64,000 nucleotides of DNA from Escherichia phage EK010: sequence record NC_070981.1; one strand, 5' to 3'. The translations under genes were made by a program, and so were the position numbers. Positions 9,112 through 31,620 of the stretch are shown piece after piece (position 1 is the stretch's first letter; each line of letters opens with the position of its first letter). The notes under the pieces are model-generated. The model saw only the letters and a list, made by a program, of their open reading frames with translations. It made no database searches and was not told where the DNA came from.

Positions 9112-9648
9112 ATGGAATGGAGAGAACTTCCCGGATATGAGGGACAGTATTCAATCTCTGATAAAGGGGATATCCGTAGTAATTACCGATGGTATCTTAA
9201 CCCTAAGACACTAACACGCCATAAGAAAGATCGTGAATTGATTATGACACCCAATGTTGGTTCAGCGGGTTATGCTCGAATCAAATTAAGTGATCAGATT
9301 TTTCATCCGTATCACAGATTGGTAGCTATTGTTTGGGTAAGCAATCCAGAAAACAAACCTTTCATCAACCATAAAGATGGAAACAAACTGAACAACAACC
9401 CTTCTAATCTAGAATGGGTTACTTGTCAGGAAAACAATATACATGCATATCAGACAGGTTTAAACTCTGGTATGCTAAGAGCAGAAACCCTTTCACATGT
9501 GTGGAATTTTATATCTCCCGAAGGGGTTCAAACCGAAATCACTAACCTTTGTAAATATTGTAGAGAGAATGATTTATCTAAGTCCTCTATGATAGCAGTA
9601 CACAAAGGAACTCAATATCAACATAAGGGTTGGAAAAGAAATGAGTAA
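9112..9648 (+). CDS. HNH homing endonuclease
   Basis: 'NHKDGNKLNNNPSNLEWVTCQENNIH' HNH motif; AAGGAG RBS; paralog of 20238-20732. Confidence 0.7.
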   Translation: MEWRELPGYEGQYSISDKGDIRSNYRWYLNPKTLTRHKKDRELIMTPNVGSAGYARIKLSDQIFHPYHRLVAIVWVSNPENKPFINHKDGNKLNNNPSNLEWVTCQENNIHAYQTGLNSGMLRAETLSHVWNFISPEGVQTEITNLCKYCRENDLSKSSMIAVHKGTQYQHKGWKRNE

Positions 9649-10075
9649 TGAGAAAGTTTTAGTAGCAACTTACGGCAGCTTGAGAAAAGGTCAACACAAC
9701 CACGCTATCAATGCTCGTGCAGGTGGTGTGTCTATCGGTGAAGGGTGGACAGTAAACAACTGTAACCTGTATCAGTATTGCACAGCATACTTCCCAAGTG
9801 TATCTCTGGTGCATAACAGCAATGGTAAGCCTGTTCGTGTAGAGGTCTTTGAGACAACCCAAGCTGGTCTGGAAGGCCCATATGACGGTCTGGAAGGTCA
9901 CCGTGGCAATGATAACCCATACACCTTTTACAAACGTACATTGATCCCAGTATTATTGGACAGTGGTGAAACTGTGGAAGCGTGGATTTACCATATTGAC
10001 GAAGAACAAGATGTTCTTGTTGAATCTGGTGACTGGACAGCATATCTGGCAGGTGAGAAGGATGACAGTAACTGA
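9641..10075 (+). CDS. gamma-glutamylamine cyclotransferase-like protein (AIG2/GGCT fold)
   Basis: N-terminal 'VATYGSLRKGQHNH' matches the GGACT 'YGTLKRGQPNH' signature; candidate catalytic Glu in 'RVEVFE'. Confidence 0.6.
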   Translation: MSNEKVLVATYGSLRKGQHNHAINARAGGVSIGEGWTVNNCNLYQYCTAYFPSVSLVHNSNGKPVRVEVFETTQAGLEGPYDGLEGHRGNDNPYTFYKRTLIPVLLDSGETVEAWIYHIDEEQDVLVESGDWTAYLAGEKDDSN

Positions 10076-10268
10076 CAGGCAGAAGTTAAGAAAGCTGGAA
10101 TCTGACTACTTGAAGATGCGGTGGAAAATTAATCGCTATGAAAAGTTTGTCAGTATGCTCACACCTGATAAGCACTCTGAAGAATTTATTCACAGAACAA
10201 AGCAAACCTTGCAGGGTTTTAGAAACTTGCAAGATGATGTGTGGGAAGAAATACGATCGTTTTACTAA
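10062..10268 (+). CDS. hypothetical protein (68 aa)
   Basis: Internal ATG of track ORF 9963-10268 with AGGTGA RBS; overlaps end of previous gene. Confidence 0.4.
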   Translation: MTVTDRQKLRKLESDYLKMRWKINRYEKFVSMLTPDKHSEEFIHRTKQTLQGFRNLQDDVWEEIRSFY

Positions 10269-10303
10269 GAAGATTGCTCAAGGAATTCCAAGGAGGATAG
10301 AGC

Positions 10304-12094
10304 ATGTCAAAGATCATTTTGGGAGACACAGGCTGTAAAGAGTGTATCTCTCATGGTCGTGATAAGACCCGCAATCACATGATTCTCTTCCGAAATGAAG
10401 AGTCCGGTGAGGAGTGGGGTTCATGTAACAGATGTGGTGCGTATGAAATCTTCGAGAAAGGAACGACGCCCACTCCTAATGAAAAGAAAGAGCTGTCCCC
10501 TGAAGAACTCCGAGAAGTCTTAGACGATTGCTTAGAGCTTCCTCAGGGAGAGTTGACTCGTCGCTTAATTCCTAAAGCTGTATCTGAACGTTATGGATGC
10601 CGTATCGGTTTAAGCCAAACAGATGGTCAAACTCCTGACAGCTACTTCTTCCCTCGTGAACGTGATGGGAACATTGTTGGATATGAAGTAAAACTTCTAG
10701 ACAGCAAGAAGTTCTATTATGTAGGTAATGTGAAAGAAGCCGACTTGTTTGGTATGGCTCAAGCACAACGTGGTGACGTATACAACAAGAAACTCTTCAT
10801 CTTTGAAGATCCTCTCTCTTGTATGTCTGGGTTCCACGTACTTACCGCGTTTACAAACGCAACTAACATCAAACCTGCTTGCGTCTCTCTTCCGTTCGGT
10901 GCAGGTTCAATCTCTTCTGTATTATCAAGAAACCGTGATTTTATTAATGGTTTCGAGGAGATTGTACTCTGCATGGACAATGATGATGCAGGTGAGATTG
11001 CTTTAACTAAGGGTCGTTCTCTGTACCCGCATGTTAAGTTTGCAAGGATTCCAAAAGGTACGTTCACTTATAACGGACAAGAAAAGGAAATCAAAGATGC
11101 AAACGACATGTTACTTGCAGGGAGAGGTCAAGAGCTTTTCAACAATCTGAAATATTCAGCTAAGCGGGAATCTCCTGCTGGAGCTGTTACAGTTTTTGAT
11201 TGCCTCGAAGATGCTCTGAAGAAAGCGGAATGGGGTATCCCTTATCCGTGGAAAACTCTCAATGACATGACCTTTGGTATTCGTTGGGGAGAGATGGTTG
11301 CAATCGGTGGTGGTGTTGGTTCAGGTAAAACCTTAATCGCACATGAACTGGTAGCATGGCTTTGCCTTGAGCACGGTTTTAATGGTGGTGGCTTCTTCTT
11401 GGAAGAGAAGGTAGGCATGTCTGTTAAGAACATTGCAGGTAAATCCGCATCCATCCCATTCCACCGACCAGATGTTGAGTATGAAGAAAGTCAGCTACGA
11501 GATGAAGCACTTCGATACGCTGATAAGTTTTTCTTGTACGACAACTTTGGGCAGAATGAGTGGGAAGACATTAAGCAGTGTATTCGCTTTTGGGTAGTTG
11601 AGAATCAGTGTAAATTTATCATTCTTGATAACATCACTGCATTGGTATCTCACTTAACTCCGTCTGAGGTAAATACAGAAATCAGCAAGATTGCTTCAGA
11701 GCTTGCTGGTATGTGTAAGGAACTGGACTTCACTGCTTTTGTGTTATCTCACTTGAATGCTCCGGCGGGCGGTGCCCCTCACGAAGAAGGTGGTCAGGTT
11801 AAAGAAGTACAGTTTACTGGCTCACGTTCATTAATGCGCTGGTGTCAATGTATTATCGGTTTCGAACGTAATAAACAAGCGGATGGGTTAGGTAAAAACT
11901 TGTCAATCATACGTCTGCTCAAAGAACGTAACTACGGACAGACAGGGGTTTGCTATACCAAATACATTAACGAAACAGGTCGTCTTGTGGAACGAGAAGA
12001 TCATGAAGTTGATGAAGATAATCCGTTTACAGTCACCAATGGAGAAGATGCAGCTTCCTTACTTTCACAAGAAGGGGAGGCACGTCCATGGTAA
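10304..12094 (+). CDS. DNA primase-helicase (T7 gp4-like)
   Basis: N-terminal zinc finger 'CKECISHG...CNRCGAY', TOPRIM-like 'DNDDAGE', Walker A 'GGGVGSGKT'; AGGAGG RBS. Confidence 0.8.
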
Positions 12095-12636
12095 AGAAAC
12101 TGTATGCGTTTGATATTGAAGGTGATAACCTCTATGACGGTATTCAGAATGTCTGGTGTATATGGATATTTGATGTACTGTCTGGAGAACGGTGGGGGTA
12201 TCGCCCTCACCAAATTGAAGAAGCACTACACAAACTGAAAGAAGCTGATGTAGTAATAGGTCACAATATTATTGATTTTGACCTTCCTGCTTTGTTTAAA
12301 TTCTACTCTCATGTGATACCTTTTCGTTTTAATGTCTTTGATACCCTGTGCCTGAGTCGATACCTCAAGCCTGATCGTATTGGTGACAGTCCAGAATACC
12401 CCAAAGGCGACCCTAGACATGGACCTCGCGGTCATGGCCTCAAGCAATGGGGCGAATTTCTGGGAGAGCTGAAGGGTGATTATGGCGAACAGGAAGAAGC
12501 ATGGGATGCATTCACTGAAGACATGTTCACATATTGTGAGCAAGACGTTAACTTGACAGTTAAGGTTTACATGTGTCTTTGTCAAATGGCAGGATTTGAT
12601 TATAAGAATCCCCCATCTCTCAACTGGAAAATGTAG
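12088..12636 (+). CDS. DEDD-family 3'-5' exonuclease (candidate proofreading subunit)
   Basis: 'FDIEGD' (Exo I), '[11 protein letters not shown]' (Exo II), 'YCEQD' (Exo III); start overlaps helicase stop. Confidence 0.6.
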
Positions 12637-12638
12637 AA

Positions 12639-14099
12639 ATGATTAAGATTCCATTATCTGAATTGAACCTTCAAGAAGGAGAAGCCCTCAGTGTAGGGCT
12701 TGACCTGATTCGTAATTTGATCAGAGATAACGTAGTCCCTGATGGTATCTATCCTGTTATTGCAGGTGGTGCTATCCGTGATACGTTCTTCCAAAATCGA
12801 ACTCCGAATGATGTTGATATCTTCCTAGTTCAAGGAGGGCTTCGTTGGAACACTCGCCAGGAAAATAGCCCTGCTAACGTAGGTAATGCTGCACTGTTCC
12901 TTGACAACTTCTTATCTTGGACAGAAAGTAAGGGGCTTCAGGTTACATCTCGCCTAGTTCAGCCTGTTAACGGGACAACCTATGCTGAAGCGCTTTTCAC
13001 TTTCCAAGAGATTCTGGAAATTGAGATTGATCAAGTGAAGATTCAGATGATGATTAATCTCCCTCTGGATATGGATACTTTGAGTCGTCGCTTTCCTATG
13101 ATCTGTCAAGGGTTTATGACTCTTGGTGATTTGTATGTGTCAAACGAAGGTTTGTTTGCAATGTCATACACTCGTGACATTCCTGTGGTATCTAGTCGTG
13201 AAATGAAGTATGTTCACAAGAAGTGGCCTGAAGCAACTGTTGCAGTTTATAGCAGTTCTACCGAATATATGCACCTTGCAATGGGAGCTTTCGGTGAGCC
13301 AGAAGTTCACCTGATTAGTGATTTAGTTGGACCTATGGCTGGTGTAAATTTATATCAGAATCAGCGTCGTCATTATACCCTGAAGATGATGGAAACTATA
13401 TTAAACATTCCTCAGGAAAGGGGTCGTAGCTATCTGGACGAGGAAGTTAACCTACAGACAGAATGGTCTAGTGGATTAACCACTATAGGTGCTGAAGCAA
13501 TTACGCAGCCTTGGACTCCGGGAACTAACAGACGAGATCTTCAAGCTTTTAATGAAGAAACTTCTCGAACTGTTCGAGGAGGTGTTGTAGGGTATAACGT
13601 ACAACCTCATGAAAGACCTCGTGACACTTTTACTGGCAGTTTTGGTAGTGCACACTCTTCTGGAATGGATACTCGTACATGGCATGTCCAAGGAGGAACT
13701 GCTCGTCCTATTCCTTCTCCGTCAATGGATGATTTGCAGCGTTCTCGTCGTTCATGGGAAACAGTAAGCTCTGTTGTTCAGGGTCTACGTGCTAGTGATG
13801 TAGAACGTGTAGAAGTTGGCGATGTGCTGGAAGATGGATTGCTGGCGATAGCGGCTCGTGAAGCTGCTCGTACTGGCTTTGCATCTTTAGCTAATGATGC
13901 TAACGAAGCTCCTCGCCCTCGCCGTCGTAGCGGTTTAGCTCACTCTAACACTGAACTAGGTTCAGAACTCCGATCTGCTGCTCGTGAGCTATCTGGTGAG
14001 CTTCACAACAACCTAGCAGGTGTTACACTATCTCGTGAAACAGCTCGTAATATGATTAATAATTTGGCATCATCTGTACAAGGAAACAGAAACTCATGA
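12639..14099 (+). CDS. Pol-beta-superfamily nucleotidyltransferase (CCA-adding/poly(A) polymerase-like head) with Ser/Arg-rich low-complexity C-terminus
   Basis: 'IAGGAIRDTFF...NDVDIFL' matches GGAVRD + DxD catalytic motif; C-terminal half GC-rich and compositionally distinct. Confidence 0.5.
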   Translation: MIKIPLSELNLQEGEALSVGLDLIRNLIRDNVVPDGIYPVIAGGAIRDTFFQNRTPNDVDIFLVQGGLRWNTRQENSPANVGNAALFLDNFLSWTESKGLQVTSRLVQPVNGTTYAEALFTFQEILEIEIDQVKIQMMINLPLDMDTLSRRFPMICQGFMTLGDLYVSNEGLFAMSYTRDIPVVSSREMKYVHKKWPEATVAVYSSSTEYMHLAMGAFGEPEVHLISDLVGPMAGVNLYQNQRRHYTLKMMETILNIPQERGRSYLDEEVNLQTEWSSGLTTIGAEAITQPWTPGTNRRDLQAFNEETSRTVRGGVVGYNVQPHERPRDTFTGSFGSAHSSGMDTRTWHVQGGTARPIPSPSMDDLQRSRRSWETVSSVVQGLRASDVERVEVGDVLEDGLLAIAAREAARTGFASLANDANEAPRPRRRSGLAHSNTELGSELRSAARELSGELHNNLAGVTLSRETARNMINNLASSVQGNRNS

Positions 14100-14629
14100 G
14101 TCTTTTAGGTTCTCAAGAATTACACAGCGTTATTGATAGTGGCTTTTTAGATGCGGAGCATAAATATGTTAACGCTGCTAGTGTGGATATCCGTATTGGT
14201 GATACTATCCTTGTTGAAGAACAGGCTGATGGTATTGTTGACATTGATGCTAAAGAAAACCTCAAGTGGAAAGAAGTGAAAATCCCTGAAGATGGCATTG
14301 TCATTACTCCGGGACAGTTCTTCTTAGCTCACTCTATGGAAGAATTTAACCTTCCAGATAACATCTCAAGCCTGTTTGTACTCCGCTCCTCGATGGCTCG
14401 TTGTGGTTTGAACCACCTACATGCTGGTTGGGCTGATGCAGGGTTTAACAGCAGTAAGCTAACCTTTGAGTTCCATAACGTTACCCACAATCACAGCTTA
14501 CGAGTTCGTGCTGGGATGCGTGTTGGTCAAATGGTTATGTTTGAACACTCTCACGCTGGTGATGATTCCTATGCAGTGAAGGGTCGTTACAATGGCAGCA
14601 ATGGTGTAGTTGCTTCTAAAGGTGTATAA
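14096..14629 (+). CDS. dcd: dCTP deaminase
   Basis: 'VDIRIG', 'LRSSMARCGL', 'GWADAGFNSSKLTFEFHN' align with bacterial Dcd motifs. Confidence 0.7.
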   Translation: MSLLGSQELHSVIDSGFLDAEHKYVNAASVDIRIGDTILVEEQADGIVDIDAKENLKWKEVKIPEDGIVITPGQFFLAHSMEEFNLPDNISSLFVLRSSMARCGLNHLHAGWADAGFNSSKLTFEFHNVTHNHSLRVRAGMRVGQMVMFEHSHAGDDSYAVKGRYNGSNGVVASKGV

Positions 14630-14632
14630 TTG

Positions 14633-14845
14633 ATGGAGTTTGGAACAATGAAAAGACGTTGGGTAGTTCGTGTTCACTGGAGCAGTGGTGCAGAGTCAAT
14701 GGGTATTAGAAACACCCGTCAAGAAGCTCGCGCTCATAAGAAGTTCTTGTTAAGTTGTGAAAGCACAATTAATAAGATCACTATCCACAAAGCTCAAGAC
14801 TTTAAATCAGGTCGTTTCTATATCAGCGGAAAGGTACATTACTAA
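14633..14845 (+). CDS. small protein, paralog family member 1 of 4
   Basis: Shares W-x-V-x-V-x-W ... RQEAR ... K-I ... (V/I)HY pattern with 14845, 16709, 16929 ORFs. Confidence 0.5.
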   Translation: MEFGTMKRRWVVRVHWSSGAESMGIRNTRQEARAHKKFLLSCESTINKITIHKAQDFKSGRFYISGKVHY

Positions 14846-16430: not shown

Positions 16431-16431
16431 A

Positions 16432-16708: not shown

Positions 16709-16921
16709 ATGTCCGAATGTAAATGGGCTTTACAAGTAAATTGGGGTGGTAATAGAAGTGACATTGCCGCCACTATCTCGTTACAACGAACCCGTGAAGC
16801 TGCTCGTACACTTCGTCGTATGTTTATCAGTGGTGGTCAGAAACCATGTGATGTTAAAATCTACAAAGTTAAACATACCAACGGTGTTATGCAAATTGAC
16901 ACCAACGTAAATTATCGCTGA
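16709..16921 (+). CDS. small protein, paralog family member 3 of 4
   Basis: W..V.W ... TREAAR ... C-terminal NYR. Confidence 0.5.
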   Translation: MSECKWALQVNWGGNRSDIAATISLQRTREAARTLRRMFISGGQKPCDVKIYKVKHTNGVMQIDTNVNYR

Positions 16922-16928
16922 GGCAGAT

Positions 16929-17151: not shown

Positions 17152-17619
17152 ATGATACAAGACGACTTGGAATACAACCCTAAGACTGGAGACTTCTTCT
17201 GGAAGAACACAAAAGGTCGAAGGGTTAAAGGAAATCAAGCTGGGTATGTATCTTCTCTAGGTTATCGTTACATTGAGCATGAAGGGAAAAGCTACAGAGC
17301 TTGTCGCCTTGCTTGGTTCTTTGTTCATGGAAAGTTTCCTGAGTTTGAAATTGACCACATCGACCAGAACAAACTTAATGACTCAATTGATAACCTAAGA
17401 GATGTGAATCCATCTACTAACTGCCATAACAGAAGGCAGTACGATGTTGATAACAAGATAGGAAATCTTCCTAGAGGTGTGTATCTTCGTAAGACAGCTT
17501 CTGGTGATAAATATCGAGCCATTATCGGCGTCAAAGGTAAGAATATATACTTAGGGACTTTTGCTTCTTGTGAAGAGGCAGAAGAAGTTTACAACAAGGA
17601 GAAGTTGAAGTATGTCTGA
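17152..17619 (+). CDS. HNH homing endonuclease with AP2-like DNA-binding domain
   Basis: 'IDHIDQNKLNDSIDNLRDVNPSTNCHN' HNH motif plus AP2-like 'GV...GDKYRAIIGVKGKNIYLGTF'; AAGGAAG RBS; directly upstream of ThyX. Confidence 0.65.
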   Translation: MIQDDLEYNPKTGDFFWKNTKGRRVKGNQAGYVSSLGYRYIEHEGKSYRACRLAWFFVHGKFPEFEIDHIDQNKLNDSIDNLRDVNPSTNCHNRRQYDVDNKIGNLPRGVYLRKTASGDKYRAIIGVKGKNIYLGTFASCEEAEEVYNKEKLKYV

Positions 17620-18262
17620 TTTTTTAAAAGCAACACTGGTAGAGCACATGGGTTCCGACAAATCTGTGGTCAATGCAGCAAGGGTTTCCTTTGGTGTGAC
17701 ACGAGATGGTGATCTGAACGAACGTGACGAGCGGTTGATTAAATTCTTAGCTCGGGAACGTCATGTGACTCCTTTTCGACACCCTCAAATCACCTTTCGG
17801 TGTAAGGCTCCCATTGCAATTGCTAGACAACTCAATAAACACCAAGTTGGATTCTCATGGAACGAAATGTCCCGGCGGTATAAAGATGGAGCAGTTGAAC
17901 TCTTCATCCCTAAAGAGATTTTTGAAAGACCTTCGGACCTCCATGCAGGTGCGGGGAATCTCCTTACCACAGGAGCACAAAACTCTGCACTAGTTCTGAT
18001 TAATCGGGCATACGAAACAGCTCTTGAGTCGTATGATGAATTGATTAAGTTTATCGCTCCAGAGCAAGCTCGATTTGTTCTACCTCAAGGTATGATCACG
18101 GAGTGGGTGTGGACAGGTTCTTTATATGGCTGGTCAGAGTTATGTCGTCAGCGACTGTCCGACCATGCTCAGTATGAAGTACGAGTGTTCGCATCAACGG
18201 TCGATGAAGAGCTTCGTAAACTTTTCCCAATCTCATGGGATGCACTACGTGAAGCCCACTAA
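17612..18262 (+). CDS. thyX: flavin-dependent thymidylate synthase (ThyX family)
   Basis: 'LVEHMGSD...AARVSF', 'KAPIAIARQ', 'NEMSRRY', 'SDHAQYEVR' match ThyX conserved blocks. Confidence 0.65.
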   Translation: MSDFLKATLVEHMGSDKSVVNAARVSFGVTRDGDLNERDERLIKFLARERHVTPFRHPQITFRCKAPIAIARQLNKHQVGFSWNEMSRRYKDGAVELFIPKEIFERPSDLHAGAGNLLTTGAQNSALVLINRAYETALESYDELIKFIAPEQARFVLPQGMITEWVWTGSLYGWSELCRQRLSDHAQYEVRVFASTVDEELRKLFPISWDALREAH

Positions 18263-18437: not shown

Positions 18438-18637
18438 GAACATTGTGGACTCTTGACTGTCAAGATGATGAAGGAGAGCGTTGGACTTGGAAATATTTCC
18501 TAGATAAACCAACACCTGATAACCCTGCTTTAGATTTTACTTCATATGAAGATGCTAAGAAGTTAGTAAACGGAGAAAAGGTTTGGTCTCCGGATGATGA
18601 AGTTCAATACTTTTTAACAGAACGGAAATTTTCATAA
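18434..18637 (+). CDS. hypothetical protein (67 aa)
   Basis: ATG overlapping upstream stop. Confidence 0.45.
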   Translation: MRTLWTLDCQDDEGERWTWKYFLDKPTPDNPALDFTSYEDAKKLVNGEKVWSPDDEVQYFLTERKFS

Positions 18638-19885: not shown

Positions 19886-19920
19886 CTCCTTAGTGTACAC
19901 TGATATATTAAGGAGTTATG

Positions 19921-20241
19921 ATGACCGATAAGGCGAAACGTGATTATGCACAAGAACGAAGAACTGCAATCGCAAGGGGTGAAACCGGCGTTGGTAGCAA
20001 GAGCGGAGATGCTCAGCGCCACCGTGCACGTCGCATCGTTGAAAAGCGCGATGGAAAAGCTGCTGTCCGAGGTAAAGATGTTGGACATAAACGATCAATC
20101 AAGTCGGGAGGTTCTAATGCGTCAAGTAACTTACGTGTTGAATCAGTCTCTCGAAATCGCTCGAACGGCGGCAAAAGTGGAGATCGTGCTGGAAAATCAG
20201 CAGGAGGAGTCAAATCGAGAAAAGGCGCTCTAAGTCAATGA
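19921..20241 (+). CDS. basic Arg/Lys/Gly/Ser-rich protein (106 aa); region also open in a second + frame
   Basis: AAGGAG RBS 5 nt before ATG 19921; TAATGTATA motif 35 nt upstream; alternative ORF 19940-20233 in another frame. Confidence 0.45.
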   Translation: MTDKAKRDYAQERRTAIARGETGVGSKSGDAQRHRARRIVEKRDGKAAVRGKDVGHKRSIKSGGSNASSNLRVESVSRNRSNGGKSGDRAGKSAGGVKSRKGALSQ

Positions 20242-20732
20242 TTCCGATTTCCGACTACTTGTCATACGACCCGGATACTGGTTTATTGATTTTTACCGAA
20301 TCTAGCTCTAAAGGTAAGAAATGGAATAAATCACATCCGGGAAAAGTGGCAGGGGCTGTTGATGAAAAAGGATATATCAGAGTTTACTTTGAAGGGAGGA
20401 GATGGAAAGCTCACAGACTTATAGCTTCTGTGCTCATACCTAACCCTGAAAATAAACCACAAATTAACCACATCAATGGTAACAAAAGTGATAATAGGTT
20501 AGAGAACCTAGAGTGGGTCACTGGTCATGAAAATATACAACATGCTTTTTCAACAGGTCTTAATGTTGGTAAAGAGAGGGATGCTAATGGAATGACTAAA
20601 ATCAACACATTGGATGTGGAGAAGATCAAGAGTTTATATGTTAAAGGCTCTACCACTCACGGAACAAGAGCACTAGGTAAGATGTTTGGCGTAAGTCACA
20701 CAGCTATCCGACATGCTTTAAGCTCAAGTTAA
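20238..20732 (+). CDS. HNH homing endonuclease
   Basis: 'NHINGNKSDNRLENLEWVTGHENIQH'; paralog of 9112-9648; followed by terminator. Confidence 0.7.
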   Translation: MIPISDYLSYDPDTGLLIFTESSSKGKKWNKSHPGKVAGAVDEKGYIRVYFEGRRWKAHRLIASVLIPNPENKPQINHINGNKSDNRLENLEWVTGHENIQHAFSTGLNVGKERDANGMTKINTLDVEKIKSLYVKGSTTHGTRALGKMFGVSHTAIRHALSSS

Positions 20733-20735: not shown

Positions 20736-20768
20736 AAGGCTACCCATTTCGGGTGGCCTTTTCTTTTA
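20736..20768 (+). terminator. rho-independent terminator
   Basis: AAGGCTACCC-ATTTC-GGGTGGCCTT stem-loop then T-rich run, right after HNH gene stop. Confidence 0.6.
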
Positions 20769-21656: not shown

Positions 21657-21672
21657 CTATAAGGAGTGGGTG

Positions 21673-23517
21673 ATGGATAACCCTGATAAGTTACCTTTCA
21701 TAACGGAGATGACAGTCGCTGATATAATCTCAAAACAAGCGAAGCATGGAGTCAACTTCAACAGAAGAAACGCTCGGTGGTTTGTTCACCTTCTCAAAGA
21801 GATTATTGTCAATATTGATAAAGAACTGATTCCTCTCCTCCCCAAAATGCGGGTGGATGGTTCAACTTATGCTAAGCCTTTTAAGAAATCAGGTGCTTTA
21901 CAGAAGTGGCCTCAACTCTATTGTGATAGGGTTGGTCTTAAAAGAGAAGATATCGGTGGGGCGTTTACTTGCGTTGAGTATGTAGACTTTGACCCATCAA
22001 AAGATGCACGTATCAAAGAAGCCTTGATGGATGAAGGTTTTATACCTCCAGAGTGGAATTATTCTAAGAAACCTTGGAATACTTTTGAAATTCGTAAAGC
22101 TATGAAGAAGTATGGTACATACTCTGCATGGTATTCTGCTTGGATTCGAGGTAACGCTAAAGAGAAACAGACAGCAGAGATGATAGATGCTGATATCCGA
22201 AGGTTTTTGGATAAGCACTTCCGTTATCACACTGTCAACTATATGAAAGCCTATGTCAGCGGTTTAGGTCTTAACCCTAACAGGAAGAAGCCTGTAACCT
22301 TTGATGAAATCAAAAAAGCTTTGGCTACATCAAACAAGTGGCCTACAGCCCCTACAAACCTTGAGGAGACTCTTGAAGAGGGGCTTGGGGGTGAGCTAGG
22401 GGGTGTAGGAAGTTTGCTTAAGAGACGCGTTGTAGCGGCTCACAGGCTAGGTTTGATTAGCGGGCTTATCGACAAGGAACGTAAAGATGGTAAGTTGTCC
22501 GCCGAAGCTAATAGCTGCGCTACTCCGACATTTCGTTTTAAACATCGCATTGTTGTTAATATTCCTTCTCGCGGTTTGTTTGGTCACGAGTGCCGCAGTC
22601 TTTTTCAATCTGACTATTCCTCAGACGATAGTCATAACCATCCTTTCATCATTACCAACCATATCCCTGATGGGTGTTACGTACGAAAGGGTACTAACAT
22701 TATCTACGAAATGGGAAAACCGGGCAAGAAAGACAAACCAATAGGTGCTTATAAATTTTATGTACCTGCTGGTCGTGAAATCTTCTTAGGTTACGATGGC
22801 TCTGGTCTTGAGCTGAGGATGCTTGCTCATTACCTTATCAAAGAATGTCGTGAGATGCTCGCTGAAGCAGAGCAGGAAAACAACCCAGCTAAGAAACGAG
22901 AAGCTGAACGCGGTCTAGCTTCTGCTGTTATGTACAGAGATATTCTTTTAGAAGGAGATATTCACTCACACAACCAAAAACTTGCTGGCCTTCCTACTCG
23001 TGATAATGCTAAAACGTTTATCTACGCATTCAACTACGGAGCTGGTGACGCTAAGTTAGGAAGCATCGTAGGTGGTGGCTCTGATGAAGGGGCTGTCATG
23101 AGGGCAAGATTCTTAGCAGAGAATCCTTGTATTGCAATTCTTATTGAACGTATGACAGAGAAAGCACAAAGTGGATACATCTACGGTGTGGATGGACGTC
23201 GTATTACAATGAGAAGGGATGCAACTGGAAAGGTTATGGTTCATAAAGCCTTAAACACCCTCTTACAGAGCGCTGGGGCGATTGTTATGAAGTATGCAAT
23301 GCTATTCCTTAATAAATGGATTGAGCGTGATGGTGTTCGTTGTGCGAAGGTTATTGACATGCATGATGAAGGCCAGTTCACTGTACATCGTGACGATGTT
23401 AACAAACTTCGTACCCTCACTGAAGAGTGTGTTCGTAAAGCAGGTGAATACCTCAAAATGGAATGTCCTCTTGCATCTGATTGTAAGATTGGGTTAAACT
23501 GGAATCACACTCACTAA
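21673..23517 (+). CDS. family-A DNA polymerase, polymerase domain only
   Basis: Motif A 'YDGSGLELRMLAHY', motif B 'RDNAKTFIYAFNYGAG', motif C 'VIDMHDEGQF'; ATG 21673 with AAGGAG RBS (track start is GTG 21670); no exonuclease motifs in this ORF. Confidence 0.8.
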   Translation: MDNPDKLPFITEMTVADIISKQAKHGVNFNRRNARWFVHLLKEIIVNIDKELIPLLPKMRVDGSTYAKPFKKSGALQKWPQLYCDRVGLKREDIGGAFTCVEYVDFDPSKDARIKEALMDEGFIPPEWNYSKKPWNTFEIRKAMKKYGTYSAWYSAWIRGNAKEKQTAEMIDADIRRFLDKHFRYHTVNYMKAYVSGLGLNPNRKKPVTFDEIKKALATSNKWPTAPTNLEETLEEGLGGELGGVGSLLKRRVVAAHRLGLISGLIDKERKDGKLSAEANSCATPTFRFKHRIVVNIPSRGLFGHECRSLFQSDYSSDDSHNHPFIITNHIPDGCYVRKGTNIIYEMGKPGKKDKPIGAYKFYVPAGREIFLGYDGSGLELRMLAHYLIKECREMLAEAEQENNPAKKREAERGLASAVMYRDILLEGDIHSHNQKLAGLPTRDNAKTFIYAFNYGAGDAKLGSIVGGGSDEGAVMRARFLAENPCIAILIERMTEKAQSGYIYGVDGRRITMRRDATGKVMVHKALNTLLQSAGAIVMKYAMLFLNKWIERDGVRCAKVIDMHDEGQFTVHRDDVNKLRTLTEECVRKAGEYLKMECPLASDCKIGLNWNHTH

Positions 23518-23534
23518 TTTGTAGTGGAGGAATA

Positions 23535-23726
23535 ATGACTAGACACGTACATGAAACATGGGCCATTACGGGAGCAAAAGATGCAATTGTTTGCTGTAAT
23601 GGACATTTCTGCATCTATAACACAGAAAGAAAAGCTATTCAAGAAGCGGCTGAGTTAATGGAAGAGTTTCCTGATAAAGATTTCTCTATTAAGAATCTAA
23701 CCATCAACCTTCCGTGGAAGAGCTGA
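23535..23726 (+). CDS. hypothetical protein (63 aa)
   Basis: GGAGG RBS. Confidence 0.5.
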   Translation: MTRHVHETWAITGAKDAIVCCNGHFCIYNTERKAIQEAAELMEEFPDKDFSIKNLTINLPWKS

Positions 23727-23783
23727 ATCATATTACGAAATGAACTAGTCTTATTGATTAGTTCTTTTTAAGGAGACAAGGAA

Positions 23784-26458: not shown

Positions 26459-26494
26459 AAGTTATTGTTTTAAGTTAAGTTTTCTTTTGATTTT

Positions 26495-26560
26495 AATAGA
26501 GAATCAAAGTCCTAGGAGTCCTCAACCTAAATCAAGGATTTCCTTAATTCTCTATTTTTA
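26495..26560 (+). terminator. long inverted repeat with T-run (possible terminator or operator)
   Basis: AATAGAGAAT (26495-26504) and ATTCTCTATT (26547-26556) 42 nt apart, followed by TTTTTA. Confidence 0.3.
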
Positions 26561-26652
26561 TCTCGCAGGTGTCTCCTGCCCTTCGGTACTTGCAAGGGTT
26601 ACGATGATTGCCCAATATACAAGCCTGCAATAGCTTTACTAGCTATACCATA

Positions 26653-26661
26653 TATACATTA
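26653..26661 (-). promoter_or_regulatory. promoter-like motif TAATGTATA in reverse orientation
   Basis: Same 9-mer on the opposite strand in the same intergenic region, pointing leftwards into non-coding DNA. Confidence 0.25.
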
Positions 26662-26723
26662 CTACTTACTGTTATCTACTACCAAAAAGGTTATAGTATA
26701 ATAGAACCTTATCTGTATAAGTG

Positions 26724-26732
26724 TAATGTATA
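26724..26732 (+). promoter_or_regulatory. promoter-like motif TAATGTATA
   Basis: Intergenic, 59 nt upstream of SSB-like gene; TATAAT-like hexamer at 26697-26702 nearby. Confidence 0.4.
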
Positions 26733-26791
26733 TAGTATACAAACCGCTCAAAGAGAGCAACAATCTTAAATCTATATAAGGAAATATTAAT

Positions 26792-27532
26792 ATGTCTATG
26801 ATCCCTGAACTGTCTGTATCCCGTAAATCCAACTACGATGTAATCCCTGATGGTGAGTACGAAGCACGTATTGTTCGTGTTGTAGGTTTGGGTGTTCACA
26901 ATCGTGACCCTTGGATTGACCCTAAAACCAAAGCAGTTACTCCTAAGAACCCAGCTTTCCGTATGGACTTAGCTTTTGAGCTGATTGGCGTAGATGCAAC
27001 AGGGACTGATAATGAAGGCAAACCTCTGGACCCTCGCCCTGCTTGCCAGTTTAAATCTTTCGATGTAAATCCACGAGCTAAGAACTCTGGTATTCTGAAT
27101 CTGATTAAAATGATCGACCCAAGTGTTCAAGCACTGAAAGGTGATTTGGGTTGGTTTAAAGATATGCTGTTAGGTCAGCCTGTTAACATTCTGGTTAATT
27201 CCTATGTAAACAAAGCTGGTGAGAAGAAAAACTCTATTAAGAGTATCACTCCAATTCCGACCAAATATCGTGATGCTGTAGGTGCTCCTCGTAGTGAGTT
27301 GATCTTCTTCGAACCGTATGCTGAGACTGATGCTAACTTAGCTGCTTATCAAGCAATCTTCCCATTCCAACGTAACCTCTTGACTCAAGCTAACGATGCT
27401 AAGAACATTCCTCTGGCTGGTCGTGAAGTTACCAAAGCTTCTGACACTGAACAGAAGGACGCAACTCCGAGTATCCCTACTATTAATGAAGAGCCGCAGT
27501 CTACCTTTGAAGAGGACGACTCTCCTTTCTGA
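26792..27532 (+). CDS. single-stranded DNA-binding protein-like
   Basis: Acidic C-terminal tail ending 'EEDDSPF' (compare bacterial SSB 'DDDIPF'); follows a promoter-rich intergenic region. Confidence 0.5.
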   Translation: MSMIPELSVSRKSNYDVIPDGEYEARIVRVVGLGVHNRDPWIDPKTKAVTPKNPAFRMDLAFELIGVDATGTDNEGKPLDPRPACQFKSFDVNPRAKNSGILNLIKMIDPSVQALKGDLGWFKDMLLGQPVNILVNSYVNKAGEKKNSIKSITPIPTKYRDAVGAPRSELIFFEPYAETDANLAAYQAIFPFQRNLLTQANDAKNIPLAGREVTKASDTEQKDATPSIPTINEEPQSTFEEDDSPF

Positions 27533-27555
27533 TGAATCTCTCCTTGTAATAGCTT

Positions 27556-27578
27556 AGCCACCTTCGGGTGGCTTTTTT
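27556..27578 (+). terminator. rho-independent terminator (UUCG tetraloop)
   Basis: AGCCACC-TTCG-GGTGGCT followed by TTTTTT, after SSB-like gene. Confidence 0.7.
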
Positions 27579-27591
27579 CGTTGGAGTTAAA

Positions 27592-27933
27592 ATGGAAAAG
27601 CTTCAAAACAATATAGGCTTTCTTATTTTCACAGCTCTTATTTTCTTTGGTGGAATGAAGTTTGAGCAATATCGAAACGATAGCAGTGCTCTTGACCAAG
27701 AGAAGAAACAACAAGAGATAGAGATTGAGAGAGCCAAGGCTGCTGATGAAGTAGCTCAGAAAGTTCTTACCGGTTTAACTAACTGGAAGAAGAACACGGA
27801 AACTATTTACAAAGAGATGCATTATGAAAAGACTAAGCCAGTTTTTTACAATGTGTGTGCTAGCGATGAGTATGTCTCTTTATTTAACCAAAGACAGGAA
27901 GAAGCTAAGAGGGTTTTAAAATCGAAGGAATAG
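27592..27933 (+). CDS. membrane protein with N-terminal TM helix and helical periplasmic region (i-spanin-like)
   Basis: ATG 27592 with GGAG RBS; 'IGFLIFTALIFFGG' TM segment then charged helical region. Confidence 0.4.
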   Translation: MEKLQNNIGFLIFTALIFFGGMKFEQYRNDSSALDQEKKQQEIEIERAKAADEVAQKVLTGLTNWKKNTETIYKEMHYEKTKPVFYNVCASDEYVSLFNQRQEEAKRVLKSKE

Positions 27934-27956
27934 AAGAGTTTTTATCCTATGATGAA

Positions 27957-28415
27957 ATGTCAGGAAAACTAACGTGGAGAAGCTCTGAAAAGAAGAGCAA
28001 TCAATGGAACTCTAGGTTTGCTGGAAAAGAGGCTGGCTGTTTGATAGATGCTGGATACATTGTTGTGAGGTTTAATGGGAAAGCACATAAAGCTCACAGA
28101 GTGGCTTGGTATTTAAAAACAGGAGAAATCCCTGATACTGATATCGACCACAAAGATCAGATTAAATCTAACAATTCTTGGACCAACCTGAGAAAAGCAA
28201 CCAATGCGCAGAATCAGATGAATACATCTGCTCAGAAGAATTCTATAACAGGTATAAAAGGTGTCGGATATAGAAAGGATGTTAACAAGTGGACTGCTCG
28301 AATAGGGTTTGAGGATAAAGTTATTTGGCTTGGTTTTCATGATACACTGGAAGGAGCTAAGTGTGCATATAAAGAAAAAGCTATTGAGTTGTACGGGGAT
28401 TTTGCTAGCTTTTAG
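27957..28415 (+). CDS. HNH homing endonuclease with AP2-like domain
   Basis: 'IDHKDQIKSNNSWTNLRKATNAQN' plus AP2-like region; conserved N-terminal motif continues upstream of the first ATG. Confidence 0.6.
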   Translation: MSGKLTWRSSEKKSNQWNSRFAGKEAGCLIDAGYIVVRFNGKAHKAHRVAWYLKTGEIPDTDIDHKDQIKSNNSWTNLRKATNAQNQMNTSAQKNSITGIKGVGYRKDVNKWTARIGFEDKVIWLGFHDTLEGAKCAYKEKAIELYGDFASF

Positions 28416-28629
28416 TTTATCAGCTTGTTCAACGAGCGACAACAGCAGGCAATCAATGCCCTTACCAACAAACCTAAAAGCTGAATGTAGAGTTGACCTA
28501 CCTCTTTTAGAGAGTGCTCAAGGGAAGGCACTAGCCACTACGTTGGAGTGGTATCAGGACCAGTACACAGAATGTGCTGCTAATCACAATGGATTGTTAG
28601 AAGCTCTGAAAGAGCGTGGAATAGAATAA
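28363..28629 (+). CDS. lipoprotein (candidate o-spanin or exclusion lipoprotein), GTG start
   Basis: GTG 28363 with AAGGAG RBS 6 nt upstream; signal peptide 'MHIKKKLLSCTGILLAFSLSAC' with L-S-A-C lipobox. Confidence 0.45.
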   Translation: MHIKKKLLSCTGILLAFSLSACSTSDNSRQSMPLPTNLKAECRVDLPLLESAQGKALATTLEWYQDQYTECAANHNGLLEALKERGIE

Positions 28630-28967
28630 TGGAAGTCCTTAATTTCTACAAAGAGGGGTTGAAGATTCCAGAAGGCGCTATTTACATAGGAAGATATAGT
28701 GCCAAGCATGGTCTACCACAATCTAAGTATCACAACCCAATAAAGCTCCAAGAGGGTGAGCCAAGAGGTTCTACTCTGGATAAGTATAGGAAATATTTAT
28801 GGGGTGAGATAAAAGCTGGCAGAATAACTGTGGAAGAGCTTGCAAATCTGTATGGAACAAACCTTGTGTGTTATTGTAAGCCCAAACCTTGTCATGGGGA
28901 TATCCTTATGGCTGCTATAAAATGGGCAAAAGAAGAAATGGATAATGCTATAACTAAGGAAAGATGA
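28629..28967 (+). CDS. hypothetical protein with '[13 protein letters not shown]' motif
   Basis: ATG overlapping upstream stop. Confidence 0.5.
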
Positions 28968-29617
28968 TGGCGAAGAAGACAACACCTACAAGATATCGAA
29001 TTCATGGAATCCCTATTAAGTATATCTCAAACTATGAAGAGTTTTACAGAGTGAACTGGAAAGTGGTTCACAAGTTCTTCATGTATGATATCAGGGATTA
29101 TCATGAAGCAGAAGATGTGGCACAAGAAGTGCTCTTGAATGCTTGGAGATTTGTCTTCGCTAAGCAGGATGAGAGAGTCCTAGAGGATGAGAAAGACCAA
29201 GAGCATATGACTTATCGAGTCAAGAACATTATCTGGTCGATTCGTTCTAATCGTCAGACAGTTGGAGACCGACGTATCTACTCTATTCCAGAGGCTGATA
29301 TGTTTAGACCTCCTGAGATGAACTCATGGGAAAGTCCTTTAGAAATTGCGATGGATAAGCATGATTCTACTGGAGACCCATTCTTGGAATCTAGAATCTT
29401 TTTCTTCTTCCAAGACCTGAGTGACATTATGGAAAACCGTAAGATGGCAAGCATGTTCTCAATGCTCTTTCTCGGCATCCCACATGATCACATCCAGCAG
29501 GAGCTGGGAATTTCACACGGAACCTTCTATCGCCGTTATGCAGAGAATCGTGATCTGTATGAAGCGGTAGTAGAGAAGCACTTTGATAAAGAAGATCTTC
29601 AAGGGATGATTCAATAA
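28964..29617 (+). CDS. sigma-70-family (ECF-like) sigma factor
   Basis: Region 2-like '[16 protein letters not shown]' and region 4-like HTH '[21 protein letters not shown]'. Confidence 0.6.
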
Positions 29618-30213
29618 TGAGTAAACCATTAGTAGTAATTCTGAATGGACCACCGGGTTGTGGTAAAGATACAATCGCTAATGCTTGGCTAGAATTCACT
29701 AAAGAGAACATTGAATTTAAGCCACATATAAAGGCTTTTAAGGAGCCTATGTACCGAGTTGCTGCTGCTGCATTAGGTATTCCTATTGACGAGTTCATGG
29801 AGCTGTATAGCGACCGTGAGTGGAAAGAACGAAGCCGTCCTGAATGGGGCGGTAAGTCAGTTCGAGATTTGATGATTGCAACTAGTGAGAGCTACTTGAA
29901 GCCAATGTTTGGTGATACCTGTATGGGTAAGTTGGCTGTTAGTAGTATCAAACGACAACTGTTAGGACAGAAAGATGTTATCGTCTTCTCTGATGGTGGA
30001 TTCAAAGCAGAAGTTTCAGAACTGGAAGAACAATTCCATGTTCAAGTAGTTCAGATTCTTCGTGATGGTTGCACTTTTGAAGGAGACTCTCGGTCTTACA
30101 TCGAAGGCAGTCAGAGAAACACATATTACCTAGTAAACGATTCTACTGTAGAAGATGCAATAGACTATTTAAATTGGATTGTTGTACGGACACGGAGAGA
30201 TCTCTATGTCTGA
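29617..30213 (+). CDS. P-loop nucleotide kinase (dNMP-kinase-like)
   Basis: Walker A 'LNGPPGCGKDT'. Confidence 0.5.
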   Translation: MSKPLVVILNGPPGCGKDTIANAWLEFTKENIEFKPHIKAFKEPMYRVAAAALGIPIDEFMELYSDREWKERSRPEWGGKSVRDLMIATSESYLKPMFGDTCMGKLAVSSIKRQLLGQKDVIVFSDGGFKAEVSELEEQFHVQVVQILRDGCTFEGDSRSYIEGSQRNTYYLVNDSTVEDAIDYLNWIVVRTRRDLYV

Positions 30214-31027
30214 TGTAATTTATCCTGAAGTAGCAATTGTGGATGCAGATGTTCTGCGATATGAAGTCGGTGCTCTTACACAAGAGCATCCTTTTCTAGA
30301 CACAGGTCGTGTTCCAGTTGATTATGGATTCTTGATTGAACGACTTCAACATAAAATAGATGTAATCATTGCAAGGTCTGGTTGCGAGAAAACAATCTTT
30401 TACTTCAGCGAAGGTGGTAATTTTCGGTTTGATATTGCTAAGCAGCAAGGTTATAAAGCTAATCGACCACTGGGAGAAAGACCTCATCATTGGCAGAACG
30501 TTAGTGATTATATTAAAGAAAATTACGAGTATGTAGAAGTTTTTGGGAGAGAGGCAGATGATGCCTTAGCTGAAAGACAGAGACGTGATAAGAACACTAT
30601 CATTTGCACCCGTGATAAAGATTTGTTAATCACCCCCGGATGGCATTACCGTTGGGCTTGCGGGGAGAGACAGAAAGAAGTACCTCCTCATTATGTATCA
30701 GAGGAAGTAGCATGGCAGAACTTCTTCTACCAGATGTTGATTGGGGATAGGACAGATAATATTCCCGGATGTGGTGAGAAGGTTGAAATGATGTGGGGTG
30801 GCAACCTAGTGATGCGTCGTCAAGGTGTTGGCAGCAAGGCTGCAATCGAACTTATTGAGAAGGTATTCGATAAGTGGACTCTTTATCATATTATACGAAT
30901 GGAATACTATAAGAGGTTCGAGGAAGAAGCAGAAGCTAAGATGTTAGAAAACGCTCGATTGCTCTTCGTTGGACAAGCTGAAGGCGACCTCTTTGATTGG
31001 TCGTGGTTAGATAAAACTTGGGAATAA
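30206..31027 (+). CDS. 5'-3' exonuclease / flap endonuclease
   Basis: 'CTRDKDLLI' resembles the Pol I 5'-exo 'TGDKDLLQL' motif; ATG 30206 with GGAGAG RBS. Confidence 0.55.
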   Translation: MSDVIYPEVAIVDADVLRYEVGALTQEHPFLDTGRVPVDYGFLIERLQHKIDVIIARSGCEKTIFYFSEGGNFRFDIAKQQGYKANRPLGERPHHWQNVSDYIKENYEYVEVFGREADDALAERQRRDKNTIICTRDKDLLITPGWHYRWACGERQKEVPPHYVSEEVAWQNFFYQMLIGDRTDNIPGCGEKVEMMWGGNLVMRRQGVGSKAAIELIEKVFDKWTLYHIIRMEYYKRFEEEAEAKMLENARLLFVGQAEGDLFDWSWLDKTWE

Positions 31028-31037
31028 GGATATTATA

Positions 31038-31229
31038 ATGGGTAAATTTGACTATCGTTCGTATGATGAAAACTCCTCTACTCGTGAATCTCGTAAAGAT
31101 CAAAAGATTAAGCACCAAGCATTTGATCGTCGCACAGGCCGTATCCCTCGTGCTGATAAAGAATCACACCGAGTCAATAAACGCATTTGGGAAGACGCTG
31201 ATATGGATGTAGGTTATGGCGAAAGCTGA
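31038..31229 (+). CDS. basic hypothetical protein (63 aa)
   Basis: ATG ORF; AAGGA RBS. Confidence 0.45.
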   Translation: MGKFDYRSYDENSSTRESRKDQKIKHQAFDRRTGRIPRADKESHRVNKRIWEDADMDVGYGES

Positions 31230-31620
31230 GAAGACAAGATGCTCTGGTCAGTGGACTGAAGCACGTTATAACTCCTTCATTAAGTCAGGGATTCGTTCTC
31301 TGACTAGGAAATGGAAACCTATGTTTGATTCTCTCAAAGAGGCTCAGACAGAACGTAAAATCAACCCTAAAACTGGCAAAATGGCAATGCATTACAAGTG
31401 CGCCATGTGTGGTAATGATTCTCCTCTTAAAGACGTAGCAGTAGACCATATAGAGCCTATTGTTCCAGTGGACCATGAAGCTACTTGGGATGAAATCATC
31501 GAGAGGGCTTTAGTTGAGAAAGATGGTTTTCAAGTCTTATGCAAAGAGCCTTGCCATAAGATAAAAACTAAGGAAGAGAATGATGCAAGACGCGAATTTA
31601 AAAAATCTAGAGACTTCTGA
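31216..31620 (+). CDS. HNH nuclease
   Basis: 'YKCAMCG...DHIEPIVPVDHEATWDEIIERALVEKDGFQVLCKEPCH' C-x2-C / DH / N / CH HNH motif. Confidence 0.6.
   Translation: MAKAEKTRCSGQWTEARYNSFIKSGIRSLTRKWKPMFDSLKEAQTERKINPKTGKMAMHYKCAMCGNDSPLKDVAVDHIEPIVPVDHEATWDEIIERALVEKDGFQVLCKEPCHKIKTKEENDARREFKKSRDF

Follow-up and report, generated by a model that had tools for sequence, protein, structure and literature searches.

I-HmuI, which together with I-HmuII represents the HNH endonucleases of the Bacillus phages SPO1 and SP82, sits inside a group I intron of the DNA polymerase gene and nicks one strand. In other HNH endonucleases, found in phages and cyanobacteria, the nuclease is combined with an AP2 domain (PF00847), and the seg and mob genes of T4-like phages (MobE, SegG) are associated with "intronless homing", a subject reviewed in PMC2988022 and PMC10448857. 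A further precedent comes from the T5-like phages Shivani and phiR201, in which an overlapped pair of spanin genes has become separated by the insertion of an endonuclease gene (PMC6139136). Here we analyze five open reading frames (ORFs) for HNH nucleases located between positions 9112 and 31620 of a 64,000-nucleotide window, that is, the whole stretch of DNA under study, from Escherichia phage EK010 (NC_070981.1). Positions 9000-32000 of this window gave a 100% megablast match to phage E20-1 (OP293233.1; 77,938 bp), a member of Gordonclarkvirinae isolated from sewage, and we refer to the phage as E20-1 throughout. Up to ~32,200, the plus strand, on which the five nuclease genes, the genes that they adjoin and both polymerase genes are encoded, carries the early, replication and nucleotide-metabolism arm, and a convergent late arm then follows on the minus strand.

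Four of these nucleases are very probably independent, free-standing homing endonuclease genes (HEGs) of the I-HmuI-like HNH_3 family in the replication arm of E20-1: HEG1 (9112-9648), HEG3 (17152-17619), HEG2 (20238-20732) and HEG4 (27957-28415). The original prediction, made from the sequence of the window, had treated all five nucleases as free-standing selfish homing elements. This view holds for HEG1-HEG4, which are polymorphic among relatives, occupy fixed sites and, in three cases, are accompanied by transfer tracts, but not for the fifth gene, HNH5 (31216-31620), which is part of the core genome. Homing endonuclease insertions in this otherwise syntenic locus have been noted before (PMC11990801); the kind of element, its presence in the subfamily and the splitting of spanin genes are thus already in the literature, and what is new are the specific cassettes and their repairs of gene ends.

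Four HNH_3 genes with a patchy distribution

All five HNH ORFs were recovered at the positions originally given for them. The Pfam HNH_3 matches of HEG1-HEG4 score 34.8-57.8 bits, in each case above the curated cut-off of 24.8 bits, so that they are not chance matches, and the His...Asn...Asn signature of the beta-beta-alpha-metal HNH core is kept in all four genes in the alignment. HEG1 combines HNH_3 (E=1.2e-8) with NUMOD4 (E=1e-9) and aligned end to end with I-HmuI (PDB 1U3E, E=2.4e-16), sharing with it the NUMOD4-type N-terminus, the HNH core with its catalytic motif, and the N- and C-terminal DNA-binding parts. HEG2, HEG3 and HEG4 have the HNH_3 core in common with I-HmuI, from which all four E20-1 genes differ in being free-standing, with no intron detected. 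In HEG2, the HNH_3 domain (E=2.4e-9) is followed by a weakly matching C-terminal helix-turn-helix (E=0.066), and in HEG3 (HNH_3 E=7.5e-10; PHROG 99 E=3.2e-52) by an AP2-like C-terminus with only a weak match, to the WRI1 AP2 domain (E=0.017). HEG4 has an HNH_3 match (E=8.2e-16) and then an AP2-type domain most similar to that of the plant AP2/ERF protein WRI1 (E=1.8e-4), with 27.5 bits against a cut-off of 33.3 bits. This arrangement resembles that of the AP2-domain HNH endonucleases of phages and cyanobacteria, the difference being that the AP2 scores of HEG4 and HEG3 lie below the Pfam threshold. Each gene thus appears to encode its own DNA-binding module, NUMOD4/I-HmuI-like, helix-turn-helix or AP2, the assignments for HEG2 and HEG3 being weak; that HEG3 shares the HNH_3 and AP2 architecture of HEG4 by homology is likewise weakly supported.

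The genes had been described as two pairs of paralogs, HNH-only (9112 and 20238) and HNH plus AP2 (17152 and 27957). Homology within the pairs was confirmed, but these are distant homologs and not recent duplicates, with 51% identity over a 75-aa core in the first pair and 30% over 148 aa in the second. The HNH part of the first description is correct, whereas "only" is not, given the NUMOD4 and I-HmuI-like ends of HEG1 and the weak helix-turn-helix of HEG2; in the second pair, HNH_3 is evident in both proteins, with AP2 sub-threshold in HEG4 and weak in HEG3. The neighbors reported for these genes, namely, the amidotransferase/ATP-grasp/gamma-glutamyl cyclotransferase block, ThyX, PhoH and the spanin pair, are all in place. 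No further HNH_3 or EndoVII-like ORFs were found in the 64-kb window, late arm included, by tblastn with these proteins and the endonucleases of relatives.

Comparison of related genomes for presence or absence of the genes, the check proposed with the original prediction, was performed on 97 Gordonclarkvirinae records, E20-1 and 96 others (Kuravirus, Suseptimavirus and relatives) that match it at 75-95% identity; KM01 and EcoN5 belong to a genus other than that of E20-1. To score the presence of each lineage, the protein was compared by tblastn with 50,697 phage records, counting matches of at least 60% aa identity over about the full length, and the limits of insertions were determined by pairwise blastn against relatives and direct comparison of junctions. 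The HEG1, HEG2, HEG3 and HEG4 lineages were present in 3, 15, 11 and 7 of the 97 records, respectively, and phage UKE3, 94% identical overall to E20-1, carries none of them.

Besides E20-1, the HEG1 lineage is represented by two records of EcoN5, with 65.7% aa identity and at the same site. A collection of 5.8 billion proteins contained copies at 99% in 33 assembly blocks, as well as lineages at 83-65%. For the 99% copies, three places were listed, each just 5' of the gamma-glutamyl cyclotransferase-like gene (GGACT), and 21 further ones were collapsed, mostly with the same neighbors; the 99% and 74% lineages lie directly upstream of GGACT in every contig among the matches listed. HEG2 has homologs at 98-99% in TH42 and TH34, at 74% in 4E8 and Bas89, and at 65-67% in eight phages (EcoN5, YW01, YF01, SGF2, SR02 and the EC.W phages). 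Close relatives of HEG3 occur in ECBP2 (98.7%) and Bas87 (95.5%), and a ~71% lineage abuts thyX in TH06, EP335, Ptacy1532, ShigP1, PGN6866 and pEC-N1203-2Af.1. HEG4 is found in KM01 at 98% aa and in Bas86, Bas87, SU7 and PAS59 at 65-68%. Occupancy by any insertion was counted for the spanin site of HEG4, the HEG1-HEG3 sites being counted by tblastn lineage. Here, a constructed empty-site query identified 4 occupied and ~36 empty sites among the 40 matches listed, in agreement with the 7 records detected by tblastn: two-piece (occupied) matches were obtained only in tblastn-positive phages, and elsewhere the match was contiguous over ~510 bp (empty).

Wherever checked, the site was the same, including for divergent homologs (65-74% aa) in the other genus and in metagenomic contigs. 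Empty sites comprise 10-26 bp, with flanks up to 100% identical to those of E20-1. We further compared nonsynonymous (pN) and synonymous (pS) differences, using Nei-Gojobori counts. In close HEG pairs, pN/pS was ~0.04-0.5, and divergent pairs showed pN of 0.19-0.26 against a saturated pS of 0.67-0.79, all ORFs being full length. The lone exception to pN well below pS was the E20-1/TH34 pair of HEG2 (pN 0.010, pS 0.019), which has too few substitutions to be informative. HEG1-HEG4 are under purifying selection: with pN well below pS and full-length ORFs, these genes are maintained and not decaying.

Cassettes at the ends of conserved genes

Each HEG forms a ~0.5-kb cassette at one extremity, 5' or 3', of a conserved gene, the targets being the start of GGACT, the start of thyX, the end of a gene of the phrog_4590 family and the overlap of the i-spanin and o-spanin genes. 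Stop codons that overlap start codons couple the cassettes into the operon, carriers show recoding of the codons next to each insertion, and three of the four elements (HEG2, HEG3 and HEG4) are flanked by tracts of co-conversion or lateral transfer. Like the seg and mob genes of T4-like phages, the cassettes lie between genes or at gene ends, are distributed sporadically among relatives, go along with co-conversion of markers in their flanks and coincide with boundaries of exchange. They differ from these in the host, a Gordonclarkvirinae podovirus, in their targets (GGACT, thyX, the phrog_4590 gene and spanins), and in that two of the E20-1 cassettes carry replacement gene ends. Scans for sigma-70 promoters and terminators showed no enrichment over shuffled sequences and nothing element-specific except for a pre-existing terminator at HEG2, and no tRNA genes that could serve as insertion landmarks were found in the window.

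The HEG2 segment (20208-20714) occupies a site where Bas87, UKE3 and NC-B have 10 bp, and its flanks are 97-100% identical to these phages right up to the junctions. The target is a conserved 107-aa gene (19918-20241; phrog_4590), the TGA stop of which overlaps the HEG2 ATG. In E20-1, this gene ends in ...GGVKSRKGALSQ (...KGALSQ), in contrast to ...GGRKGALSSS* in phages without HEG2. The left end of the cassette carries a diverged copy that replaces the last codons of the phrog_4590 gene, and the last codons of the HEG2 ORF itself (ALSSS*) are the original 3' end of that gene. HEG2 is 98-100% identical to its TH34 and TH42 counterparts, and identity drops to 81-83% directly after its stop codon, marking an exchange boundary. 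The pre-existing terminator hairpin follows at 20736-20760.

HEG3 (inserted segment 17151-17623; 19 bp at this site in UKE3) ends with a stop codon that overlaps the thyX start by 8 nt, and ThyX begins with MSDFLKATLVEH in E20-1 versus MNEQLQATLIEA in phages lacking HEG3. Recoding extends much further than this, over a 5' tract of thyX of 240 nt (17612-17851), the first 80 codons, delineated by comparison of identities. These codons are 100% identical among the HEG3 carriers E20-1, ECBP2 and Bas87, but only 69% nt and 85% aa identical to those of phages without HEG3 (UKE3, NC-B, TH42), whereas the other 130 codons share 92-97% nt identity with carriers and non-carriers alike. We infer that the tract, which travels with HEG3 and matches no sampled donor, was probably acquired by co-conversion from an unsampled lineage. 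In SU7 and TH34, the thyX site is held by HNH lineages different from HEG3.

At the HEG1 site (inserted segment 9098-9648), Bas87 and TH34 have 26 bp. The stop codon of HEG1 overlaps by 8 nt the start of GGACT (9641-10075; Pfam GGACT E=1.1e-15), which in the HEG1 allele has a replaced ribosome-binding site and first codons, MSNEKVL versus MSDKVL. In UKE3 and NC-B, the site holds two small, unrelated ORFs, which identifies the junction 5' of GGACT as a general hot spot for accessory genes; in UKE3 (3111-3731 of L007), one of these ORFs matches DUF7020 (Pfam E=1.4e-19). GGACT closes a conserved block (4909-10075) located 5' of the replication genes that also encodes a glutamine amidotransferase, DUF7195, and a RimK-like ATP-grasp protein. 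Strong restriction resistance has been reported for Gordonclarkvirinae (PMC11990801), and this block, together with a 486-aa "nucleotidyltransferase" (12639-14099) and dCTP deaminase, may be linked to it.

HEG4 and the spanin genes

The HEG4 insertion spans 541 nt (~27877-28417) at a place where relatives have the native overlap of two spanin genes, and in the o-spanin gene, which overlaps the i-spanin 3' end, the insertion point falls within the lipobox codons (S|AC). The flanking genes have the features of a predicted two-component spanin pair of the Rz/Rz1 type. The i-spanin gene (27592-27933) belongs to the Rz-like spanins (PHROG 1152, E=3.6e-34), and its last 19 codons (27877-27933, stop included) are a diverged replacement located on the left end of the cassette, such that the protein terminates in ...DEYVSLFNQRQEEAKRVLKSKE in E20-1 versus ...DEYVSLFNERQQQAANALTNKPKS in UKE3. 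The left end of the cassette keeps the i-spanin frame and supplies a homologous, diverged tail (SLFNQRQEEAKRVLKSKE versus SLFNERQQQAANALTNKPKS), and the old i-spanin tail persists 3' of the HEG4 stop codon.

In phages with an empty site, the o-spanin, MKRLSQFFTMCVLVMSMSAC|STSDN..., starts within the i-spanin gene, in its 3' part. We re-annotated the E20-1 o-spanin gene to 28363-28629, with a GTG start at 28363 (AAGGAG 6 nt upstream) or, alternatively, an ATG at 28339, so that it overlaps, in a different frame, the 3' end of HEG4. A lipobox terminates the new signal peptide, (M)HIKKKLLSCTGILLAFSLSAC, the predicted frame reading KKK, then LLSCTGILLAFSL, then the lipobox LSAC; the HEG4 sublineage of SU7, Bas87 and PAS59 has MLTKKKQKSCLVIFLASSLMAC at the equivalent position. 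By three-frame translation and a start-codon scan, the o-spanin frame is open in 5/5 HEG4 carriers, and the part of it that lies within the 3' end of the endonuclease gene encodes a K-rich n-region, hydrophobic core and lipobox; in 4/4 empty-site phages, the signal peptide is the original one, nested in the i-spanin gene. The match to PHROG 2425 (positions 3-82 of 86) spans the new signal region. The o-spanin CDS in GenBank (OP293233.1; 28456-28629) has neither signal peptide nor lipobox and, with the frame open from 28363 or 28339 and including a signal peptide, is evidently truncated.

A tract of ~850 nt (27741-28590), consisting of HEG4 with ~200 bp of either flank, shares 90-99% identity with KM01 in sliding-window comparison, against a background of 75-79% between E20-1 and KM01 in this arm. 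Conversely, 28403-28630 is just 77-79% identical to close relatives that otherwise share 93-96%. This pattern is the one left by lateral transfer with co-conversion. The direction of change, insertion into an overlapped pair, is supported by the native overlap in the great majority of relatives, the KM01 tract, and the duplicated, diverged gene ends in carriers.

On balance, we lean towards the view that, with HEG4, a "self-repairing" cassette has inserted into sequence that codes twice, exactly in the o-spanin lipobox codons. It would bring two evolved prostheses, an i-spanin C-terminus and an o-spanin signal peptide overprinted on the AP2-coding 3' end, such that both lysis proteins would stay functional, the spanins would pass from overlapped to separated, and the o-spanin allele would hitch-hike between phage genera. 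Shivani and phiR201 show exactly the same pattern: there, too, an overlapped pair was separated, by a ~0.5-0.7-kb endonuclease insertion at the i-spanin C-terminus, and differences are confined to the extreme C-terminus of the i-spanin and to the signal sequence of the o-spanin (PMC6139136). The endonuclease in those phages is of the GIY-YIG type, in contrast to HNH plus AP2 in E20-1, where, in a further difference, the endonuclease ORF also encodes, in a second frame, the new o-spanin signal peptide. As pointed out by Kongari et al. 2018 (PMC6139136), a new o-spanin N-terminus must still encode the lipoylation signal; the same authors listed ECBP2, NJ01 and phiEco32 simply as "overlapped".

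Separately, the 54-nt i-/o-spanin overlap just 5' of the insertion point (27823-27876) shows 83% identity to the spanin region in myoviruses of the Felix O1 type, consistent with the common spanin family that Kongari et al. noted (PMC6139136). A common HEG4 target in its nearest homologs outside the kuraviruses was considered and rejected, given that the Felix O1 homolog lies between prs and nadV and not at the spanins.

For all four elements, sequence comparison leads us to infer the following course of events. In a mixed infection, the nuclease would cut or nick the element-free allele close to its empty site, and recombinational repair from the element-bearing genome would copy the cassette along with variable lengths of flanking DNA. 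Interruption of the site by the cassette, along with recoding of the adjoining codons, would protect the element-bearing allele. Where insertion would truncate the host gene, the cassette would bring a substitute end; this is clearest at the spanins, where the left end of the cassette would serve as the new i-spanin C-terminus and the 3' end of the endonuclease gene, in the other frame, as the new o-spanin signal peptide. Cleavage, target position, immunity and spanin function are all putative in this scheme.

Alternative explanations, HNH5 and the split polymerase

Several observations weigh against homing as the explanation for HEG1-HEG4. Among sequenced phages, close copies of HEG1 are confined to E20-1, with no near donor, and comparison of its flanks revealed no co-conversion tract beyond ~50 bp. 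KM01 and TH06 were rejected as donors of the diverged thyX tract, at 66-71% nt identity, and the left flank of HEG2 is uninformative, carriers and non-carriers all being ~99% identical there. The AP2 assignments score below the Pfam cut-off. Finally, the GenBank record of Bas87 presents the spanin as a joined, intron-like CDS around the HEG4 homolog.

The use of join() in the latter record fits an alternative scenario in which HEG4, and possibly other HEGs, resides in a self-splicing group I intron, with splicing restoring the spanin genes. Indeed, the original i-spanin 3' end and the mature o-spanin body are intact downstream, and a precise splice (GAGTATGTC|AGCTTGT) would regenerate both genes; moreover, polA of SU7 probably contains a group I intron that carries an HNH ORF. 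Rfam searches, however, detected no group I or group II introns, either in the window at the gathering score or between 8900 and 32200 at E<=0.5, and even at E<=10 there was no Intron_gpI match around HEG4, the only match being a group II fragment at chance level (E=0.55) in positions 28585-28744, downstream of it. As a positive control, the SU7 polA insertion gave Intron_gpI with 26.3 bits (E=1.7e-4). Only ~80 nt of the 541-nt HEG4 insertion lie outside its ORF, leaving no room for a ribozyme core. Two further features would be unexpected in an intron: the i-spanin frame continues past the insertion point into a homologous C-terminus, and all HEG4 carriers conserve the new o-spanin signal peptide, lipobox and ribosome-binding site. 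We therefore consider the intron scenario very unlikely and, with no Intron_gpI signal and so little non-ORF sequence, prefer to view HEG4 as free-standing.

It is even harder to regard the HEGs as fixed, domesticated nucleases serving the phage in packaging, host-DNA degradation or anti-defense, with repeated loss accounting for their patchiness, and we give this possibility a very slim chance. That all four genes are intact, under purifying selection and translationally coupled into operons would suit such a role, as would the presence of a core HNH nuclease within this arm. However, most relatives, including UKE3 with its flanks of up to 100% identity, lack the HEGs and have native, undisturbed junctions; the KM01 tract, at 90-99% in a 75-79% background, demonstrates recent lateral gain; and in SU7 and TH34 the thyX site is held by different HNH lineages. 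A selfish element may still provide a competitive benefit in co-infection, which is compatible with homing.

The core nuclease in question is HNH5, which displays a CxxC...DH...CH..K motif and matches PHROG 3106 "HNH endonuclease" (E=2.3e-37). It had been singled out as different from the other four, and this was confirmed; searches yielded no Pfam match and no meaningful PDB sequence match to solved HNH structures. Conservation at the same position in all relatives had been named beforehand as the observation that would speak against homing, and HNH5 is present in 97/97 Gordonclarkvirinae records, in the same place and with 80-100% identity (one match being truncated), so that it is not a homing element. 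Together with a 5'-3' exonuclease (30179-31027) and a small ORF (31038-31229), it forms a conserved module. Homologs at 27-50% identity occur in Vibrio, Pseudomonas, Klebsiella and Aeromonas podophages, and in Zobellviridae (Klyazma, FBPa8) the HNH5 homolog follows the 5'-3' exonuclease as well. By this distribution, HNH5 is a core, non-mobile gene, inherited vertically as the partner of the 5'-3' exonuclease; its role is probably in DNA replication, recombination or host-DNA breakdown.

Small, conserved, non-mobile HNH proteins of phages include the HK97 gp74 type, which adjoins terminase and portal genes and is required for cos cleavage. HNH5 resembles it in these general properties but is found where the replication arm ends, beside the exonuclease and next to the convergent junction with the late arm, and has no terminase or portal neighbor; a terminase-associated, gp74-like HNH5 was accordingly rejected. 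An ORF of 100 aa (31580-31882) that overlaps the 3' end of HNH5 over 41 nt has a WYL domain (Pfam E=3.8e-6); this fold is that of ligand-sensing regulators and is often associated with nucleases and defense systems.

A final suggestion was that the nucleases might account for the split polymerase and the mosaic gene order of this region. The 3'-5' exonuclease subunit of the family A DNA polymerase (12088-12636; Pfam DNA_pol_A_exo1, 24.2 bits at a cut-off of 23.6) is separated from the uninterrupted polA, encoding the catalytic subunit (21670-23517; Pfam DNA_pol_A E=2.9e-24), by ~9 kb and some 20 conserved genes. The exonuclease subunit directly follows the primase/helicase in Bas87, UKE3, KM01, SU7, EcoN5 and metagenomic contigs, and the same split is seen in every one of these relatives, and hence in HEG-free UKE3 and in both genera. 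Gene order is collinear across the subfamily by blastn, apart from endonuclease insertions and swaps of small ORFs, with examples in E20-1 at 16712-16926, 18438-18635, 23519-23737 and 28631-28971. The first of these is a 70-aa ORF with no family match, inserted between two conserved small genes, and the last contains a DUF4326 ORF (Pfam E=1.9e-17) in place of a different small ORF in relatives; the turnover at these two sites is independent of homing elements.

Homing endonuclease insertions can split phage genes, as in nrdA/mobE of Aeromonas phage Aeh1, and in relatives of E20-1 they do occur in or near replication genes. In SU7 (NC_070980.1; 14336-14928 of L011), an HNH_3 ORF interrupts polA at ...VIDMH|DEGQF... 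(motif C), a point at which E20-1 is continuous; the ~115 nt after this ORF produced the sub-threshold Rfam group I match of 26.3 bits mentioned above, which makes the interruption a probable mobile group I intron and not a genuine polymerase split. NC-B (MK310183.1; 6179-6622 of L003) has a 147-aa Endonuclease_7 ORF (Pfam E=7e-21) without a counterpart in E20-1, located between the primase/helicase and the polymerase exonuclease subunit, and a metagenomic contig carries a NUMOD4 plus HNH_3 ORF upstream of the primase/helicase. The replication arm is therefore a hot zone, with at least 7 insertion sites across the group, none of which explains the ancestral separation of exonuclease and polymerase. 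That the HNH genes or their ancestors created the split polymerase and rearranged the arm is barely credible in the face of the intervening ~9 kb, the identical split in UKE3 and both genera, the absence of any E20-1 HEG next to either polymerase gene, and a gene order that is collinear except for indels (blastn; PMC11990801). Homing accounts for local sequence mosaicism; as an explanation for the polymerase split and the gene order, it is wrong or at least unsupported.

These results call for several corrections to the annotation of OP293233.1, in which HEG2 and HEG3 are "hypothetical", the o-spanin is truncated, and HNH5 is labeled "terminase small subunit", a designation that found no support in any search made. 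In the same record, ORF66, labeled "integrase", has only a ferritin-like Pfam match and is called a DNA-binding protein in Bas87, and ORF63 is labeled "holin", its positional counterpart in Bas87 and UKE3 being labeled "thioredoxin domain".

The behavior of HEG1-HEG4 is that of textbook selfish DNA and leaves the current understanding of homing endonucleases unchanged. Nevertheless, four homing elements in one 78-kb genome, with empty-site relatives that share up to 100% identity in the flanks, make for a clean and well-sampled natural example, in which transfer tracts are sharp-edged and two cassettes rebuild the gene ends that they disrupt. Where kuravirus-like phages are mixed, in cocktails or for engineering, the HEGs predict biased inheritance of markers in co-infection. 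Within Gordonclarkvirinae, the parts of the local sequence mosaicism attributable to homing endonucleases are the 5' end of thyX, the o-spanin allele and the 3' end of the phrog_4590 gene.

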